The notes: generated by a model not told the origin, from the letters alone. Positions 266 to 10,476 are shown, numbered from the stretch's first letter. The stretch: 32,589 nucleotides of DNA from Candidatus Aenigmatarchaeota archaeon (GCA_039000165.1 JAWBTW010000008.1:1-32589); one strand, 5' to 3'. Translations and numbers: made by a program.

Positions 266-306
266 GAAACTACCATAGGATAAGCTGTTTATCAAGTCCT
301 GGCAAC
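266..306 (-). other. 3' arm of pre-23S processing stem (BHB)
   Basis: Inverted repeat of 3546-3586; GUCCUGGCAAC/GUUGCCAGGAC helix, GAG bulge, UCAA/UUGA 4-bp helix, UAA bulge, then a long outer helix starting with one mismatch. Confidence 0.9.
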
Positions 307-610
307 CTCGGGCGATTAGGAAAGGCGGGCTGAACGCCTCGCTCGAAAGCTTGGCGCGTACACCCCCTTCCTATCAACCTCCTCGTCTAGGAGAGCCCTC
401 GTTGCTCTACCGTTCCTTGCGGAACAGCAGAGCAATTGGCTGTCTATTTTCCCGGGCGGTTTCGTCCTTAGATGCCTTCAGGACTTATCCGCTATGGCTT
501 AGCTGCCCGGCTGTGCCATGAACAACCGGTAGACCAGAGGCCACGGATGGGTGTTCCTTTCGTACTCACCCATCCTTCCGGTCAGACAGCCAGCACCTCC
601 GGTAGATAGC

Positions 611-644
<34 letters not shown>

Positions 645-743
645 AACGTCCCCCTTTAACCAGTGGGCACCTGTACCCTTGGCCGCTACTGCACGGCCAG
701 GAGGGGGGGAGCCGACAGCGACGCACCAACGCGCCGGGTCAAT

Positions 744-786
744 TTACCCGCTCGTCGCTATCCTGTGGGATGAAAACCCCTGAGCT
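744..786 (-). other. 23S BHB intron, 43 nt, after E. coli-equivalent 2477 (H89)
   Basis: GCCC/GGGU central helix, AC|A and AA|A bulges, GCUC/GAGC intron stem; removal restores GAAAGCCCACAUUGAC. Confidence 0.9.
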
Positions 787-958
787 GTGGGCTTTCACCG
801 GCCACGGGCCCATTATCCCCGAGGTAGCTTTTCTGATACCACCGGCCGCCATTAAGGCGAACCGATGTATCGCTAGCCCAGGCTTTCGCCCTTGGATCCC
901 TCGCTTTGCGGGATCCAATCAACCCAGCTTTTGCGCTTACACTCTACTCCGGATTTCT

Positions 959-1054
959 TTCGGGTGTCAGAAGCTGGTTAAAGCTCATGAGCTACCTCCA
1001 TACTCATCTTTAATCATTCTGGAGCAGTGTAATCATAGCTTCAACTTCTGACAT
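959..1054 (-). other. 23S BHB intron, 96 nt, after E. coli-equivalent ~2306 (H84 loop); contains a box C/D guide layout
   Basis: CGGG/CCCG helix, UC|A and AA|A bulges, 9-bp UGUCAGAAG/CUUCUGACA stem; removal restores GGGUCAGAAAUCC. Confidence 0.95.
976..1045 (-). ncRNA. Intron-encoded box C/D-like guide RNA (predicted 23S G2251 and U2438)
   Basis: C AUGAUUA (1030-1036), guide CACUGCUCCAGA, D' AUGA, C' AAGAUGA, guide ending GAGGUAGCUC, D AUGA (985-988), closing stem GUUGAAGC/GCUUUAAC. Confidence 0.75.
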
Positions 1055-1109
1055 GACCCGGATGAGCTGAGCTTTGGGCGCCCTTGATCTCTTACCAAGG
1101 GCGTACCGC

Positions 1110-1193
1110 TTGCTGGTTTAGGAGCTGTTCAGACCGTATGCCCCTAATCATCTTTTCATAACTTAAGGGACTCTACATTCCAACTCCTAAACT
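1110..1193 (-). other. 23S BHB intron, 84 nt, in the P-loop after E. coli-equivalent G2252
   Basis: GCUG/CAGC helix, GG|A and AA|G bulges, 12-bp intron stem; removal restores GGCUGGGGCGGUAC. Confidence 0.95.
1116..1192 (-). ncRNA. Intron-encoded box C/D-like guide RNA with two 16S targets
   Basis: Degenerate C AUGUAGA, guide UCCCUUAAGUU, D' AUGA, C' AAGAUGA, guide GGGGCAUACGG(U), D CUGA; both 11-mers are perfectly complementary to 16S (6944-6954 and 6652-6662). Confidence 0.85.
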
Positions 1194-1346
1194 CCCAGCC
1201 GAACTGCCCATCTGACGCTGTCCCCTTACGGGTAAGCCGTAAGGTTGAAAAGGGCTGGTGTTACACTTTCCTCTCAGCCTCGGCCGAAGCCTACGCCTGA
1301 TAACGAGTCCCAGCTACTCTATGCAATTTCAACCTTACAGCAACGC

Positions 1347-1377
<31 letters not shown>

Positions 1378-1505
1378 TTTCCCACCGGAGGTCTCTGGCC
1401 TATTCACCAGAACAGCAATTTCGCTGGGTCCCAACCCAGGACAGCGGGGAAGTCGTTAAGCCGTTGAACGGGCCGTCAATTAAACGGCAAGGGATTGCGC
1501 TACTT

Positions 1506-1551
1506 ATGTCGCCCAGGCGGCGTATCATCAAATCAGATGACCGCCCTGAGT
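1506..1551 (-). other. 23S BHB-type intron, 46 nt, after E. coli-equivalent A1927 (just 3' of H69), with K-loop
   Basis: GUCG/CGAC helix, UA|A and AU|A bulges, CUCAGG/CCUGGG stem, imperfect outer helix; internal AUCUGA-UUU-GAUGAU K-loop. Confidence 0.92.
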
Positions 1552-3545
1552 TACGACGGTCAGAGTTACCGCCGCCGTTTGCCGGGGCTTCTCCCGGTTG
1601 GAACCGGGTTTCACACACCGGCACTGGGCAGACCTCAGAGACTGTACAAATCCTTTCGGACTAGCAGTCTCCTATGTTTTTGTTAAACAGTCGCTTCCCC
1701 CTTGTCACTGCGACCTGCTCTCCCTTTCGAGAGAACAGGCACCCCTTCTAGCGAACATACGGGGCCAGTTTGCCGATTTCCCTGGATTGGGTTCTCCCAA
1801 CACGCCTTCGCCTTCTCAGCGACCCTACCTGTGTCGGTTCTCGGTACGATCATGGAGGATCCTTCCAGCTTCCCTTTTCACGGGTTCCAGGAATCGGCCG
1901 AACTCCGCATACGCGGAGCTATTCCTGTCTTCACCTACTTCTCCTCATTACGAGACTCCGTAGGCTTCAACAGTTAACTTGCGTCGGCCTATCCTGAAAC
2001 GTCGGAAAGCTGGCTTGCGTTGCCGCACGTACCTCCATGGTATCGGAATATTAACCGATTTCCCCTTCGAGCGCTTCGGTTAAGAGCGCCCTTAGGATCG
2101 ACTAACTGCCAGCTGACGAACATTGCTGGCAAACCCTGAGGGTTCAGGCGGCTGGGATTTTCACCCAGCTATGCTGCTACTCATGGCAGGATCTTCAATT
2201 CTGCACGGTCCACTTGTTCTTACGAACAAGCTTCTACCCGTGCAGAACGCCTCCCTACCCCCTGCTTTCGCAGGTCTGGGGTATCGACAGCCGGCTTAGT
2301 CCCTTCCATTTTCAGGGCCCAAACCCTCGGCGGGTAAGCTGTTACGCACTTTTTAACTGATGGCTGCTTCTAAGCCTACAGCCCCGCTGTCTATGGGTTT
2401 GGACTCCCTTCTTCGTTTAGCCGGCATTTAGGGGTCTTAACCCCAGGTTGGGTTGTTCCCCTTTTGGGCACCGAGCTTAACCCAGTGCCCTCACTCTGGC
2501 CTTCTCAGGCAGCAGTAGATTCAGAGTTTGACAGGACGGCTGATGCTTTCGCACCTTGACCGTCCAATCAGTCTCTTTACCCTACTGCTTACCTCCGGCC
2601 AGGCTGAGCTGACGCTCATTTCGGGAGGAACCAGCTATCACCGGTCTCGATTGGCTTTTCACCCCTAACCCTGGGTCAACCGAGCGATTGGGTCTCAGCA
2701 CCGGTTCGGACCTCCATTCCTCTTTCGAGGAACTTCATCCTGCCCAGGGTTAGATCGACCGGCTTCGGGTCTTGCTCGAGTAATTTCGGGCGCTTTCACA
2801 CCCCGCCCCACGTCTCTTGCGAGACTACGGGCTTGTCGCTTTCGCTACGGCTACGGGGCTTAAACCCCTTAACCTCACTACTCGAGCAAACTCCCTGCCC
2901 CGTTTTTCAGAACGGATGCTAGGACACTGTAAGCTACTCCTCGTACTCTTCTCTTGCGAGAATTTCCTTCGGAGTAGCACCTTTCATGCCCTAGCTGACT
3001 ATGCCCAACTTGGTTTCAGGCTCTTTTCACCCCGCTTTCGCGGTACTTTTCAGCTTTCTCTCACGATACTAGTCCGCTATCGGACTTGGTTAGTATTTAG
3101 GGTTGGATGTTAATGCCACCCAAATTCCCACTCCATATCCAAGGAATGGTACTCAGGAGACTTGGCATTTTCCTTCTTGCCTTCCCCTACGGGACTATCA
3201 CCCTCTATGGTGGAGCTTTCCAGCTCACTTCGGGTCGACAAGCGAGGAAAGACCCAAGTCCTGTAACTCCACATCCTTTCTTTCTTTTCGAAAGAAAGTT
3301 CGGTTTGCCCTGTTCGGCTTTCGGTCGCCCCTACTCACCGAATCTCGTTTGATTTCTTTTCCTGCGCCTACTGAGATGCTTCACTTCGGCGCGTTCCCTC
3401 TCCTTCCGGAGTAGCCCTTAACGGGCTAGGAATCCCATTCGGCAATCCTGGGGTCAAATCCTCCATGCGGATAACCCAGGCTTATCGCAGCTTGGCACGG
3501 CCTTCTTCGGCTAACCAAGCCGAGCCATCCACCAAGTGGGCTACT

Positions 3546-3586
3546 GTTGCCAGGACCTCTTGACCAGCCTATCCTATGGTAGTTTC
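3546..3586 (-). other. 5' arm of pre-23S processing stem (BHB)
   Basis: Pairs with 266-306. Confidence 0.9.
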
Positions 3587-3593
3587 ATCTTCT

Positions 3594-3655
3594 GGTTTCA
3601 TAAAGACAGTTCGTTCTTCATCTTTCATCAGACGCTGTCAGTTAAGTCATCAACC
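3594..3655 (-). ncRNA. Box C/D-like guide RNA in the 23S leader (module A; predicted U2504 and A2600)
   Basis: C UUGAUGA, guide ending CUGACAGCG(U), D' CUGA, C' AAGAUGA, guide containing CGAACUGUCU, D AUGA, GGUU/AACC ends; matches 23S 712-720 and 614-624. Confidence 0.75.
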
Positions 3656-3702
3656 TCAACTCTTAAACCCTTATTATCAAAATAAGGATTCGCATCAAAG
3701 GA

Positions 3703-3760
3703 AGCTCGTTAGGTGCCCATTTCTTCATCTTTTATCAGTTAGAAGGGCAAACTCATAGCT
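3703..3760 (-). ncRNA. Box C/D-like guide RNA in the 23S leader (module B; predicted U2552)
   Basis: Co-varied K-turn AUGAGUU/AACGA, D' CUGA, C' AAGAUGA; guide UGGGCACCU perfectly complementary to the A-loop at 664-672. Confidence 0.75.
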
Positions 3761-3829
3761 AAACAAAAAGGCCGATGTTCAAGCTAAGCAGACATAACGA
3801 CACCGGCAACTAATTTATTAGTTTTTATA

Positions 3830-3846
3830 ATTTAAAAGCTTTATCC
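3830..3846 (-). promoter_or_regulatory. Putative BRE/TATA promoter of the pre-23S transcript
   Basis: Minus strand GGATAAAGC-TTTTAAAT, about 20 nt upstream of where the GC-richer structured leader begins (~3810). Confidence 0.6.
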
Positions 3847-3900
3847 TATTTAAGCTTTATCGTTTTTTTAAAACGACGTGAGTTGAAGTTAAATTAACAA

Positions 3901-3972
3901 TGGACCGGCGGGGATTTGAACCCCGAACCTCCTCGTTGCAAGCGAGGCGATCTACCGTTGATCTACCGGCCC
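3901..3972 (-). tRNA. tRNA-Ala(UGC)
   Basis: Cloverleaf, CCUCG-CU-UGC-AA-CGAGG anticodon arm, G3-U70 pair, no encoded CCA. Confidence 0.97.
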
Positions 3973-4121
3973 AATTAATTATTTCTAATTTAGTTAAGAT
4001 GAAGATAAAATTTTATCCTTACGATTTTAAGTCGTTCGGAATCCTTTACTTTTTCTGAAAAATTCTTCGAGAAATTTTTCAATTTTTTAAGCTTTAAATT
4101 CTTTACTACTTTTTTATAAGT

Positions 4122-4846
4122 ATGGAAAGGGAGGAAGACATAGAAGTAGAGTTCCAATCAACTCTAGAGGAAATTAAAGAAAAAACGGGCTTTAAAAAAG
4201 AGTGTATTTTAGATCTCTTTATCTTCGAACTTTGCAGAAGAGAAAAAAAGCACATCAAAATTTTAGGAAACATCCAATCGGTATAGCTCATCTTATTTCT
4301 CTGTACATCGATCCCTCTCTCTTGAATTATTCAATAGTCGAAGGTCCTGGAGCACCTATTAAAAAAACTCTTCATCCTTCTTCAACTTTTCTTGATGAAG
4401 AGAAAATAGAGTATGTTGATTATTTTTGTAGCTACTTTCTAATTAGTCCTAATATGCCTGTGCCAAGAAAAGAGTTAAAGGATAGCATCTTAGTCTGTTT
4501 ACTTTCTGATTTAGAAACTCCTTATAGAATAGGATTGATAAATCCTTCTCGAGTATTAGGCATAAAAATTGAAATGGATAAATATGATGAAGGAAACATT
4601 AACTCTCAACTCTGTACCTTCAGAAAATTTTATGGTTGTAACCAAATTCATAGAATTAGTGATGAAGAATTATACGAGTACACAAAAGAAAAAATGAAAG
4701 AGAAGTTTGCAGACTATGAAAAGAGAAGTGAAACCTTGTATAAAATCTTCAAACCATTTTATGAAACTTACAGAAGTTTTCTAATCAAGGAGCTTGAAAG
4801 ATTGGCTAGAGAACTCATGGGAAAACATAGAACATATGTAACGTAA
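4122..4846 (+). pseudogene. Hypothetical protein split by a -1 frameshift (4122-4286 plus frame ending 4846)
   Basis: ATG at 4122 lies about 24 nt after a TTTAAA box; the 54-aa frame overlaps a -1 frame open from 4196 to 4846. Confidence 0.5.
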
Positions 4847-4935
4847 AAATGCAAGTCTTATTAAGTAAAAAGTTCTTTTCATTTTCTTTGCTCTGAAATA
4901 TTAGTGATTTAAAGCTTACGATTATTTAATTTATT

Positions 4936-5742
4936 ATGCCTTTGGTAACAATCCATTACCATACAAAAGAAGGAGAAAAACTTAACCTAGGAAAAACTTC
5001 AAAAAAATTAGCAGAAGATTTTGAAAAAAGCAAAGTAGATTATCTTATTCTTACTGACAAAGCTTTTGCGTGTGAAAAAATCGATTTGCCGATAAAAGCT
5101 TTCAAAAAAATCAAATCTTACCTTAAAGCAAAAAAAGAAAACTTGCTTTTTGGTTTAGAATTTTTAACTTTCGACAATTATCATATTTTGGGTTTATGCT
5201 TAACTCCAGAAAAATGGGAAAACAAGGTATCGCCAAAAAATTTAGAAGATGTTTGCAAGAGTGTAGAAAGGGACGAAGGATTTATTGTCGTTCCGCACCA
5301 GTTTGGACCCTGCGGGTTGGGTAAAAGAGCGGATGAGATAATTAAACTTTACGAAAAAGGTGAAATTTGTCATAAACCTTTCATAGAAGTAAGCTATTAC
5401 TTGGAATCTATCCCTTCATTAAAAAAAGGTCTTAAAAAAGCAAACAAAGAAGCTATAAATTATGCTAGAAAAAACAACTTGGCCTTGATTTCTGGCTTAG
5501 ACTCAAGGTTCAAAAATTTTGATTTAGCTTTTAATTTCTTTAAAGAAGATATAACTAACTGCTTAGAAAAAGCTTCGTTACAAGGCTTTAACAACAATTA
5601 TATAATTCCTTACATTACTCCTTCGCATACTCCCATGCTTATGGAAACCATATATTTGCTAAGAGATCATACGATTGGTTTCCTAAGAACTGGTAAATTT
5701 GAAATAGCTAGTTATTTCCTGAGTCAAATAAGTAAGAGTTAA
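4936..5742 (+). CDS. PHP-domain phosphoesterase-like protein with degenerate metal ligands
   Basis: Motif order HYHT / LTDK / GLE..HILGL / VPHQF / IEV / GLDSR resembles PHP HxH, TDH, GxE, AHP, SDAH. Confidence 0.7.
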   Translation: MPLVTIHYHTKEGEKLNLGKTSKKLAEDFEKSKVDYLILTDKAFACEKIDLPIKAFKKIKSYLKAKKENLLFGLEFLTFDNYHILGLCLTPEKWENKVSPKNLEDVCKSVERDEGFIVVPHQFGPCGLGKRADEIIKLYEKGEICHKPFIEVSYYLESIPSLKKGLKKANKEAINYARKNNLALISGLDSRFKNFDLAFNFFKEDITNCLEKASLQGFNNNYIIPYITPSHTPMLMETIYLLRDHTIGFLRTGKFEIASYFLSQISKS

Positions 5743-5770
5743 ATCTTTTAAAGTATTTTTATTTTCAAAG

Positions 5771-6223
5771 ATGACAGAAGTAAAAAACTATGTTGGAATT
5801 CTTTTCGGGTTAGATAAGGATAGAGACGCGAGAAACTATTGCTTAAAACTGATGAAGAAATACGAGAATAATGAGAATTTTATTTTTGTTGACTTGGAAT
5901 GTTTTGCGAAAAAGGAAAGCAAAATAAAAGTTCTGTCAAAATTCTCTAAAGTTTGTTTTGGTGTGCACAGTTGTGATGATTATTCACCAACGATTTTTGA
6001 ACTAGAGTTCTGTGATAAAGGTATTGTTAGGGATTTGGCTTTTTATTTACAAGAAAAAAAACTTGTCGATAGGTTGTTCCCTTATCCTTATGAGATGTGG
6101 AAGTTAAGAGACTTTCCTACAAATTTTGGTATCATAGAAATTTTCGGAAATGAAAAGGCTTTTCATCGTTTCGAACAATTACTTCTTCAAACTTTGGAAT
6201 TCTTAAAAACTCAAAGAATTTAA
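5771..6223 (+). CDS. Hypothetical protein
   Basis: 150-aa ORF with typical composition; no family recognised. Confidence 0.7.
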   Translation: MTEVKNYVGILFGLDKDRDARNYCLKLMKKYENNENFIFVDLECFAKKESKIKVLSKFSKVCFGVHSCDDYSPTIFELEFCDKGIVRDLAFYLQEKKLVDRLFPYPYEMWKLRDFPTNFGIIEIFGNEKAFHRFEQLLLQTLEFLKTQRI

Positions 6224-6283
6224 ATTTTTGTTAGACGTCTAACATTAATACAACCTATACCTTTCTTTTGATAAAAAGAAAGA

Positions 6284-6318
6284 AGGTAGCGATTTTTGGT
6301 GCCTAGAGGTATTACCGC
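6284..6318 (-). other. 3' arm of pre-16S processing stem (BHB)
   Basis: AAUACCUCUAGG-CACC-AAA-AAUC pairs with GAUU-GGUG-AAA-CCUAGAGGUAUU at 7889-7911; canonical BHB. Confidence 0.92.
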
Positions 6319-6331
6319 ACACAAAGACTTA

Positions 6332-7881
<1,550 letters not shown>

Positions 7882-10368: not shown

Positions 10369-10476
10369 TGCTGGGACCGGGATTTGAACCCGGGACTTCG
10401 GCGTTTCATCTTTCATCTTCTTTCAAAGCTCATAAAGCTTATGAGCGCCGCGTTCTAACCGCTGAACTATCCCAGC
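10369..10476 (-). tRNA. tRNA with CAU anticodon, most likely elongator Met, with a 35-nt intron (10404-10438)
   Basis: G1-C72, CGGCG/CGCCG anticodon stem; best BHB is UCAU/AUGA helix with AA|G and AA|C bulges, i.e. position 38/39. Confidence 0.92.

Follow-up and report, generated by a model that had tools for sequence, protein, structure and literature searches.

The question raised by this locus is whether a short segment of a 23S rRNA leader is a box C/D-type guide module directed at the catalytic centre of the rRNA that it precedes, as an earlier note on this DNA had proposed. The window, that is, the whole stretch of 32,589 nucleotides analysed here (GCA_039000165.1, JAWBTW010000008.1:1-32589), comes from a Candidatus Aenigmatarchaeota archaeon with a genome of 783 kb in 25 contigs (33% G+C, about 92% complete). 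The 23S gene (3556..296; 3261 nt against a model of 2987 positions), the tRNA-Ala gene upstream of its leader (3973..3900) and the 16S gene (7881..6332) are all read from the minus strand. Three plus-strand open reading frames of 214, 268 and 150 amino acids separate the 16S from the tRNA-Ala (window 3973-6332), and the 16S and the tRNA-Ala-23S unit are unlinked. A TATA-like A+T-rich stretch is present at approximately 3822-3840, and the tRNA is followed by a hairpin with a run of U residues; based on these features, the 23S leader may possess its own candidate promoter. Elsewhere in the window, a 108-nt tRNA at 10369-10476 (minus) was found by Rfam and not reported by ARAGORN, presumably because it contains introns. 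The segment under study, here termed module A (3594..3655, minus), is located in the 23S leader between the tRNA-Ala and the 5' strand of the 23S processing stem (3559..3582, minus), which is complementary to 262-300 and has its bulge-helix-bulge cut beside 3558/3559.

Read from 3655 to 3594, the RNA of module A is GGUU GAU GA CUU AACUGACAGCGU CUGA UGAAAG AUGAAGA ACGAACUGUCUUU AUGA AACC. It has the build of a double-guide box C/D-type RNA, as seen in its sequence, in a four-box scan, in a structural scan and in the leaders of 39 relatives. The terminal stem (GGUU, 3652..3655, with AACC, 3594-3597) is followed on the C side by a kink-turn core (3647..3651) composed of the 3-nt bulge GAU (3651-3649) and GA (3648-3647). 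The terminal kink-turn, GGUU/GAU/GA ... GA/AACC, thus has both its closing stem and its 3-nt bulge, and it would contain tandem G.A pairs. The D' guide arm CUGACAGCG (3633..3641) precedes the D' box CUGA (3628..3631), which is CUGA or a close variant in nearly all relatives. A loop of 6 nt leads to the C' box AUGAAGA (3615..3621; consensus RUGANGA), of which AUGA and the next G are invariant in a 21-sequence alignment (A1). This internal D'/C' motif is canonical, and some relatives have a hairpin inserted between its two boxes. The D guide arm CGAACUGUCUU (3603..3613) then precedes a variant D box, AUGA (3598..3601), in which only GA is conserved. The A of the C-side GA and the G in the GA of the D' box are separated by 17 nt, the canonical 3+12+2, and on the D side AUGAAGA is followed by 18 nt up to the next GA and the closing stem. 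With three stem-II nucleotides counted, the guide spacers in this structural register are 12 nt (D') and 13 nt (D), in agreement with a length of about 12 nt.

Since the stem that covaries lies directly against GAU-GA, it is the second GA of UGAUGA that enters the kink-turn, and the structural C box is consequently AUGACUU. In the canonical register, a stem is followed by NRU, by GA, and then by a U and a G whose partners are the U and C of box D. In the terminal kink-turn of module A, stem II lacks the canonical U.U and G-C pairs, and in this register both terminal boxes, C as AUGACUU and D as AUGA, depart from the consensus RUGAUGA and CUGA. According to the available part of PMC5689011, the canonical terminal C/D motif has U:U at 3b:3n. 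The earlier note had described a complete set of C, D', C' and D boxes; the double-guide anatomy stands, but the D box is AUGA and not CUGA, and only AUGA remains of the C box in the structural register. Over 3560-3900, no Rfam family scored above its threshold, and among matches up to E = 10 the only one was SNORD5 (14.3 bits, E = 9, threshold 55). The minimum free energy fold of module A (-11 kcal/mol, z = -2.16) was rejected as a structure model, since it pairs both arms and ignores the kink-turn. Within the module, GACAG of the D' arm can form 5 bp with CUGUC of the D arm.

The two arms are complementary to two strands of the catalytic centre of the 23S rRNA. A base-by-base check pairs the D' arm (C3641..G3633) with CGCUGUCGG at 712..720 (minus; G712..C720; E. 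coli 2501-2509) in the peptidyl-transferase central loop, a segment that includes the C at 2503. The pairing comprises 9 bp, one of them G.U, at positions 2-10, and the fifth nucleotide upstream of CUGA, A3636, faces U717 in a Watson-Crick pair. The D arm (C3613..U3603) pairs with GAGACAGUUCG at 614..624 (minus; G614..G624; E. coli 2597-2607), the 3' strand of helix 93 with A2600-A2602, through 10 Watson-Crick pairs and one terminal G.U, i.e. 11 bp at positions 2-12. The fifth nucleotide upstream of AUGA, U3606, faces A621, again in a Watson-Crick pair, and each arm thus forms at least 9 bp. In the Rfam alignment, the neighbour of U717 is a C, at a position occupied in the archaeal consensus by the A of UCGAUGUCGG, which we take to be E. 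coli A2503, so that U717 would be U2504; similarly, we take A621, within GAGACAGUUCGG, to be A2600. Both pairings had been given in the earlier note, with the variant C2503 inside the first, the D'+5 position at U2504 and the D+5 position at A2600, and all of this proved exact. The E. coli numbers agree with the available part of PMC4644070 for C2606, the base of helix 93, and for U2552, the first base of the A-loop.

The targeted region is itself unusual. The 23S of this genome has C at window position 718 (2503) against A in the archaeal consensus, and its A-loop (664-672) reads UGCCC instead of UGUUC. In the order, 31 genomes could be matched cleanly here: 24 have C at position 2503, seven have U and none has A, and the A-loop is UGUCC, UGCCC or UGUUC. 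Over the paired stretch, the target of the D arm is invariant in the relatives examined, with the exception of two genomes that both lack the arm (G040 and G045).

Within the single genome, the evidence for module A is of mixed strength. When both strands of the 25 contigs were scanned with a loose four-box pattern, module A was the sole match, and the structural scan also recovered it. The 9-mers GACAGUUCG and CGCUGUCRG occur genome-wide in the 23S only, plus in the leader as the complement, and the complement of the D arm is likewise restricted to the 23S in the 783-kb genome. Upon shuffling of the arms, an equally good anchored match to 16S plus 23S was obtained in 84 of 2000 trials for the D arm and in 441 of 2000 for the D' arm. 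The D' complementarity in this one genome is at chance level and not significant alone, and the D complementarity is only suggestive; the case for module A therefore rests on comparison. A half-mer scan (C box with at most one mismatch, 10-15 nt, CUGA, guide score of at least 9) gave 42 matches, mostly in coding DNA, and was discarded as a guide to the C/D repertoire.

We compared a 381-nt query, consisting of the leader and the start of the 23S, with 61 related genomes and obtained matches in 36 of them. Leader alignments with 72-98% identity extend over several genera and two further families. Homology of the leader was found in 28 of the 30 loci fetched, with CGA(A/G)CUGU at the same place in all 28; in G040 and G045 the leader arm is absent and helix 93 is also changed. 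After further genomes had been added by means of a pattern search, leaders could be parsed at 39 of 42 loci from three families, using a parser that requires GA, and the remaining three gave no parse. The D arm CGA(A/G)CUGU is present in 39/39 parsed leaders and occupies invariant columns of alignment A1, amid flanks, loops and D' spacers that vary. The terminal stem changes in a compensatory manner: GGUU/AACC in 15 of the 39 leaders, GGCC/GGCC in 6, GGUC/GACC in 4, GGC/GCC in 6, AGUU/AACU and GGCU/AGCC in 1 each, plus G.U intermediates. Of the 156 cells of this stem, 148 are paired, against 116.9 +/- 3.5 upon shuffling, and none of 2000 shuffles was as high, kinship being ignored in this statistic. 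These values were computed directly from the parsed leaders (MAFFT misaligned the 3' ends of three sequences).

Other elements of the module are more flexible. The bulge is GAU in 26 of the 39 leaders, UGU in 6, AAU in 4, AGU in 2 and GUA in 1, and the D box is AAGA in 19, AUGA in 12, ACGA in 4 and UUGA or AGGA in 2 each. Between the D arm and GA there are 5 nt in 28 leaders, 4 nt in 9 (mainly genus g6) and 6 nt in 2, corresponding to D spacers of 13, 12 and 14 nt, respectively. The predicted site is thus not strictly fixed, and it would shift to C2601 in genus g6. Across the phylum, the exact motif UGADGADCGARCUGU is present in 54 of 371 genomes (f1, 37/69; f5, 4/19; f6, 1/1; f4, 0/23), and its reversed control in 5. 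We examined the pattern matches outside the order (11 genomes) and second matches in G008 and G028: four were tRNA anticodon arms, the other nine had no 23S start downstream and were coding-like by eye, and none was a leader module. Taken together, these alignments indicate that the D arm and the kink-turn of module A are under strong selection across an order, and they strongly support the assignment of the D arm to 2597-2607.

The assignment of the D' arm to 2501-2509 appears less secure. This arm is identical in six genomes of five genera (G000, G001, G012, G019, G020 and G031) and altered in two others, shifted in register by one in G028 and with one internal mismatch in G006, giving a total of 8/39. 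In the six genomes, 10 nt of the arm, CUGACAGCGU, are unchanged while the preceding 5 nt and the K-loop differ, and this constancy amid variable neighbours argues for constraint, as judged from the alignment. In the other 31 leaders, the D' arm is absent and the spacers are unrelated. A search of D' spacers of other relatives against the 16S and 23S of this genome, used as a proxy, identified no consistent or convincing target, most of them giving no rRNA match at or above the score floor of 7.5. Genomes with the D' arm and a readable 23S all have C2503, and seven genomes with U2503 lack the arm. The D' arm is a more recent acquisition, limited to a subclade. The expectation of the earlier note that both guides would be conserved in the 23S leaders of relatives thus holds for the D arm, in 39/39, but for the D' arm only in 8/39.

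Upstream of module A, the leader contains a second C/D-type module of the same build, module B (3702..3761, minus). Its D arm UGGGCACCU (3719-3711, minus) pairs with 664-672, and its fifth position, A3714, faces U669, which we take to be U2552. The guide of module B and the A-loop co-vary and are Watson-Crick consistent in 23 of 25 genomes: for guide and A-loop, respectively, 8 have GGGCACC and GGUGCCC, 14 have GGACACC and GGUGUCC, and 1 has GAACACC and GGUGUUC. The two exceptions are a G.U wobble in G033 and an A.C mismatch in G024, a genome in which the leader and the catalytic-centre region are on separate contigs. The C-type and the U-type are both present in f1 and in f5, indicative of more than one co-change. 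For the D' spacer of module B, we found no convincing target. U2552 is predicted to be guide-methylated in five of seven archaea, according to the available part of PMC4644070. Between modules B and A is a hairpin (3656..3696, minus; AUGCRAAUCC - hairpin - GGGUUxAAGAGU) that is conserved in sequence and has a covarying stem in relatives. We rejected it as a kink-turn: one strand fits, and the other has C or A where G is required.

A different arrangement is found in family f4, in which the leader (L131/G044, L132/G049 and L130/G057) carries a single double-guide C/D RNA with a helix-93 arm before a canonical CUGA (D') and an A-loop arm before UUGA (D). The sequence CGAACUGUCUCUCUGA is present in 13 of 23 f4 genomes and in none of the 95 others of the order. 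The fifth position of the f4 helix-93 arm is again A2600, at a fixed distance from CUGA in 13/13. The f4 RNA and module A are thus two architectures aimed at the same nucleotide. At the position of module A, f4 has a bare kink-turn hairpin without guides, GUC UGU GA CC ... GG GA GAC, and a guide-less kink-turn hairpin is located at this position also in genus g31 of f5. The distribution of arms suggests that guides moved between modules.

Information on the RNA comes from runs labelled as hot-spring and sediment metagenomes that contain the sequence, one of which, X4, is a hot-spring metatranscriptome. In X4, 994 placed reads are at least 99% identical, and 1046 reads exit at 3558 and resume in the 3' end of the 23S (at ~289), with a mean depth of ~670 for the bin. 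The junction, GAUAA/AGGUCC, puts both cuts in the 3-nt bulges of the leader-trailer bulge-helix-bulge, and it is present also in a contig of run X1. The junction reads of X4 prove the processing stem, and they confirm the bulge-helix-bulge cut of the stem immediately upstream of which the earlier note had correctly placed module A. The ends of most sampled 23S molecules are ligated, and these molecules are hence circular or circularly permuted, as was reported for Pyrococcus (available part of PMC7758197). Because the processing stem needs the trailer, the leader is not released before the entire 23S, domain V included, has been made, and this attachment during 23S synthesis is the basis on which we propose action in cis. 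For the leader, the X1 RNA library yielded a 170-nt contig over 3562-3731 with one mismatch, at a depth of 3.66 against 1813.8 for the 23S contig of the same library; DNA carry-over is possible. Runs X2-X4, which are not small-RNA libraries, had zero depth over 3570-4100 in the 3-5% sampled. A leader RNA that is rare or short-lived would fit these data, which are no proof of a stable small RNA.

The genome encodes the proteins of a C/D ribonucleoprotein, namely fibrillarin (283.6 bits), Nop5 (231.4 bits) and L7Ae (109 bits), all above the Pfam cut-offs, with the Nop5 and fibrillarin genes adjacent on contig 6. We found no convincing FtsJ/RrmJ in the ~92%-complete genome: the best match (27.5 bits, 52/181 positions) is a partial one in an unrelated methyltransferase open reading frame beside a ligase-like gene, and one weaker match is below the cut-off. 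On this result, methylation of U2552, if present, would depend on a guide. A stand-alone intergenic C/D sRNA is located on contig 1 (43501-43558, minus; L117), with C box AUGAUAA and D box UUGA. It is present with both arms kept in 32 of 61 relatives; its D' arm forms 9 perfect bp with the 16S (own position ~1428), and its D arm, GGAGGUGA, can base-pair with UCACCUCC at the 16S 3' end. The conservation of an sRNA with UUGA indicates that this lineage tolerates D boxes other than CUGA.

C/D-like sequences are present also in insertions within the rRNA genes. An 83-nt insertion in the 790 loop of the 16S (7071-7153, minus), after GAUUAGAUA, is closed by CACGAG/CUCGUG and carries CUGAUGAAAAGAUGAAGA, the K-loop motif common to the leader modules; judged from these sequence features, the insertion is probably an intron whose core is C/D-like. 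The 23S has insertions at 1108-1193 (86 nt) and 954-1053 (100 nt), both minus and bounded by inverted repeats of 9-11 bp. In the former, AGAUGAUUA is accompanied by CUGA and an arm of 12 nt, with 11 perfect bp to the 16S, and the latter resembles module B (AGC UAU GA ... AUGA ... AUGAGUA ... GA GCU). A further insertion of 45 nt is present at approximately 745-790, at the tip of helix 89 of the 23S.

Considering sequence and comparison together, we regard it as very probable that module A is a true guide module of the box C/D type and forms part of the pre-23S leader. We consider it likely that it functions as a guide RNA built into this leader in the following manner. Module A would be transcribed ahead of the 23S and remain covalently attached until the leader-trailer stem forms, and would thus be present when domain V is synthesized. 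Its terminal kink-turn and internal K-loop would recruit L7Ae, followed by Nop5 and fibrillarin. The D arm would engage 2597-2607, the 3' strand of helix 93, and present A2600 at the fifth position for 2'-O-methylation, and in this genus and a few neighbouring genera, the D' arm would pair with 2501-2509 and place U2504. By holding two strands of the catalytic centre together, the module would also assist folding, and module B would have the same role for U2552 in the A-loop. The anatomy of the module, its pairings, its conservation and covariation, the presence of the protein genes and the processing cut are observed, whereas the binding of proteins, the modification and its precise nucleotides, and an effect in cis are inferred; methylation of A2600 and U2504 and cis action are well-motivated predictions and not findings.

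Several alternatives have to be weighed against a methylation guide. Module A could be a tethered antisense chaperone that does not methylate, in which the kink-turns bind L7Ae and perhaps Nop5, the geometry of the fifth position is irrelevant, and the arms keep helix 93 and the strand at 2501-2509 either open or joined while the catalytic centre is assembled, comparable to U3 for 18S. The degenerate D box would fit such a role, as would a guide-to-box spacing that varies by 1 nt in either direction and the attachment of the leader until the trailer is made. The D arm spans the entire 3' strand of helix 93 and must compete with that hairpin, and the lineage's catalytic centre, without A2503 and with an altered A-loop, is unusual. 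Chaperone roles of dual guides were proposed by Dennis et al. 2015 (available part of PMC4644070). Against this proposal, the spacers have the canonical 12-13 nt, f4 has a canonical CUGA at a fixed distance in 13/13, the fifth position of module B falls exactly on U2552, and the full methylation machinery is encoded. On this balance, we regard a chaperone that does not methylate as unlikely, bearing in mind that chaperoning and methylation are not mutually exclusive.

Considerably less probable, in our view, is a platform for processing only, in which L7Ae is recruited by several kink-turn or kink-turn-like motifs of the leader, namely the terminal turn and K-loop of each module and the middle hairpin, to organise the processing stem for the splicing endonuclease, the complementarity to rRNA being incidental. 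Such a platform would account for the recurrence of the K-loop motif CUGAURAAAGAUGAAGA in the 16S insertion, where the spacers are too short for guides, and for the guide-less kink-turn hairpins at the position of module A in f4 and in g31 (f5). It leaves unexplained, however, both a near-invariant arm of 9-11 nt whose genomic complement is in the 23S only and the co-variation between the guide of module B and the A-loop. A chance resemblance in an A+T-rich spacer might be suspected given that the single-genome shuffles (84/2000 and 441/2000) are not decisive and that UGA-rich motifs are common in DNA of 33% G+C. This is hardly credible in view of a non-coding leader kept at 72-98% identity across genera and families, the covariation of the stem, and the status of module A as the sole match of the four-box scan.

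A kink-turn RNA derived from a pre-rRNA spacer after bulge-helix-bulge cleavage, as module A would be, has reportedly been described before: the 16S-D RNA of Tang et al. 2002 is said to be the ligated leader-trailer of Sulfolobus and Archaeoglobus pre-16S and to bind L7Ae. It reportedly has neither guide arms nor a C'/D' motif, and it comes from the 16S spacer, not that of the 23S. The type of ribonucleoprotein and the rRNA neighbourhood that we propose resemble those of the helix 93/A-loop double-guide C/D sRNAs, which are the most conserved archaeal guides, with Neq sR10, Pca sR30 and Sac sR13 as examples (available part of PMC4644070). Like the f4 leader RNA, Neq sR10 unites a helix-93 arm with a U2552 arm in a single molecule. 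By contrast, the archaeal sRNAs in the available part of PMC4644070 target C2606, whereas module A is directed at A2600 (C2601 in one genus), and they are stand-alone genes with CUGA D boxes, whereas module A lies within a leader and has an NNGA D box.

Further precedents share single elements of the arrangement. Tko-19, which resembles a snoRNA and lies in the rRNA-operon leader of Thermococcus (2014; available part of PMC4247193), is a loose one: a C/D-type gene is likewise co-transcribed with rRNA from an operon leader, but upstream of the 16S and not in the 23S leader. The C/D guide in the intron of pre-tRNA-Trp acts in cis (D'Orval et al. 2001, as cited in the available part of PMC7994747). 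There too, guide and targets are on one precursor and the guide part is removed at a bulge-helix-bulge, but the guide is an intron and the substrate a tRNA, whereas module A is in a leader approximately 2.9 kb upstream of its targets in the 23S. Dicistronic precursors of a tRNA and a C/D sRNA are found in N. equitans, with sRNA8 after tRNA-Val, and in plants (available parts of PMC3491384 and PMC7994747). As in these dicistrons, a tRNA gene, here tRNA-Ala, is located directly upstream on the same strand, and RNase Z could therefore free the 5' side. Unlike in the dicistrons (available part of PMC3491384), the downstream partner is the 23S, and two modules and a hairpin are arranged in series. 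In the open-access literature of PMC and bioRxiv, including the available parts of PMC3608112, PMC8339473 and PMC7994747, we found no description of C/D guides in a 23S leader.

In conclusion, the usual picture of a box C/D guide is that of a free small RNA reaching its rRNA target in trans; in this leader, guide and targets share one precursor, in an arrangement kept across four families of an order. The proposed function predicts a 2'-O-methyl group at A2600, where the available parts of archaeal surveys report none. Kink-turns of functional-looking C/D RNAs can lack the CUGA box, which standard sRNA finders require. A broader reading, which we offer tentatively and consider doubtful as a whole, is that the rRNA units of this DPANN order carry their own guides: C/D ribonucleoproteins of the leader for A2600, U2552 and sometimes U2504 would act as co-transcriptional assembly factors, with C/D-like modules also in 16S and 23S insertions, in a lineage with a changed A-loop and a catalytic centre without A2503. 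In a genome that is reduced and has hardly any stand-alone guide genes, these guides would be the main reason for which fibrillarin and Nop5 are kept. The evolution of these guides is linked to unusual sequences of the catalytic centre, namely C or U at 2503 and a UGYCC A-loop, and the 23S leaders of this order provide a natural system in which to ask whether tethering matters for the modification or folding of the peptidyl-transferase centre.
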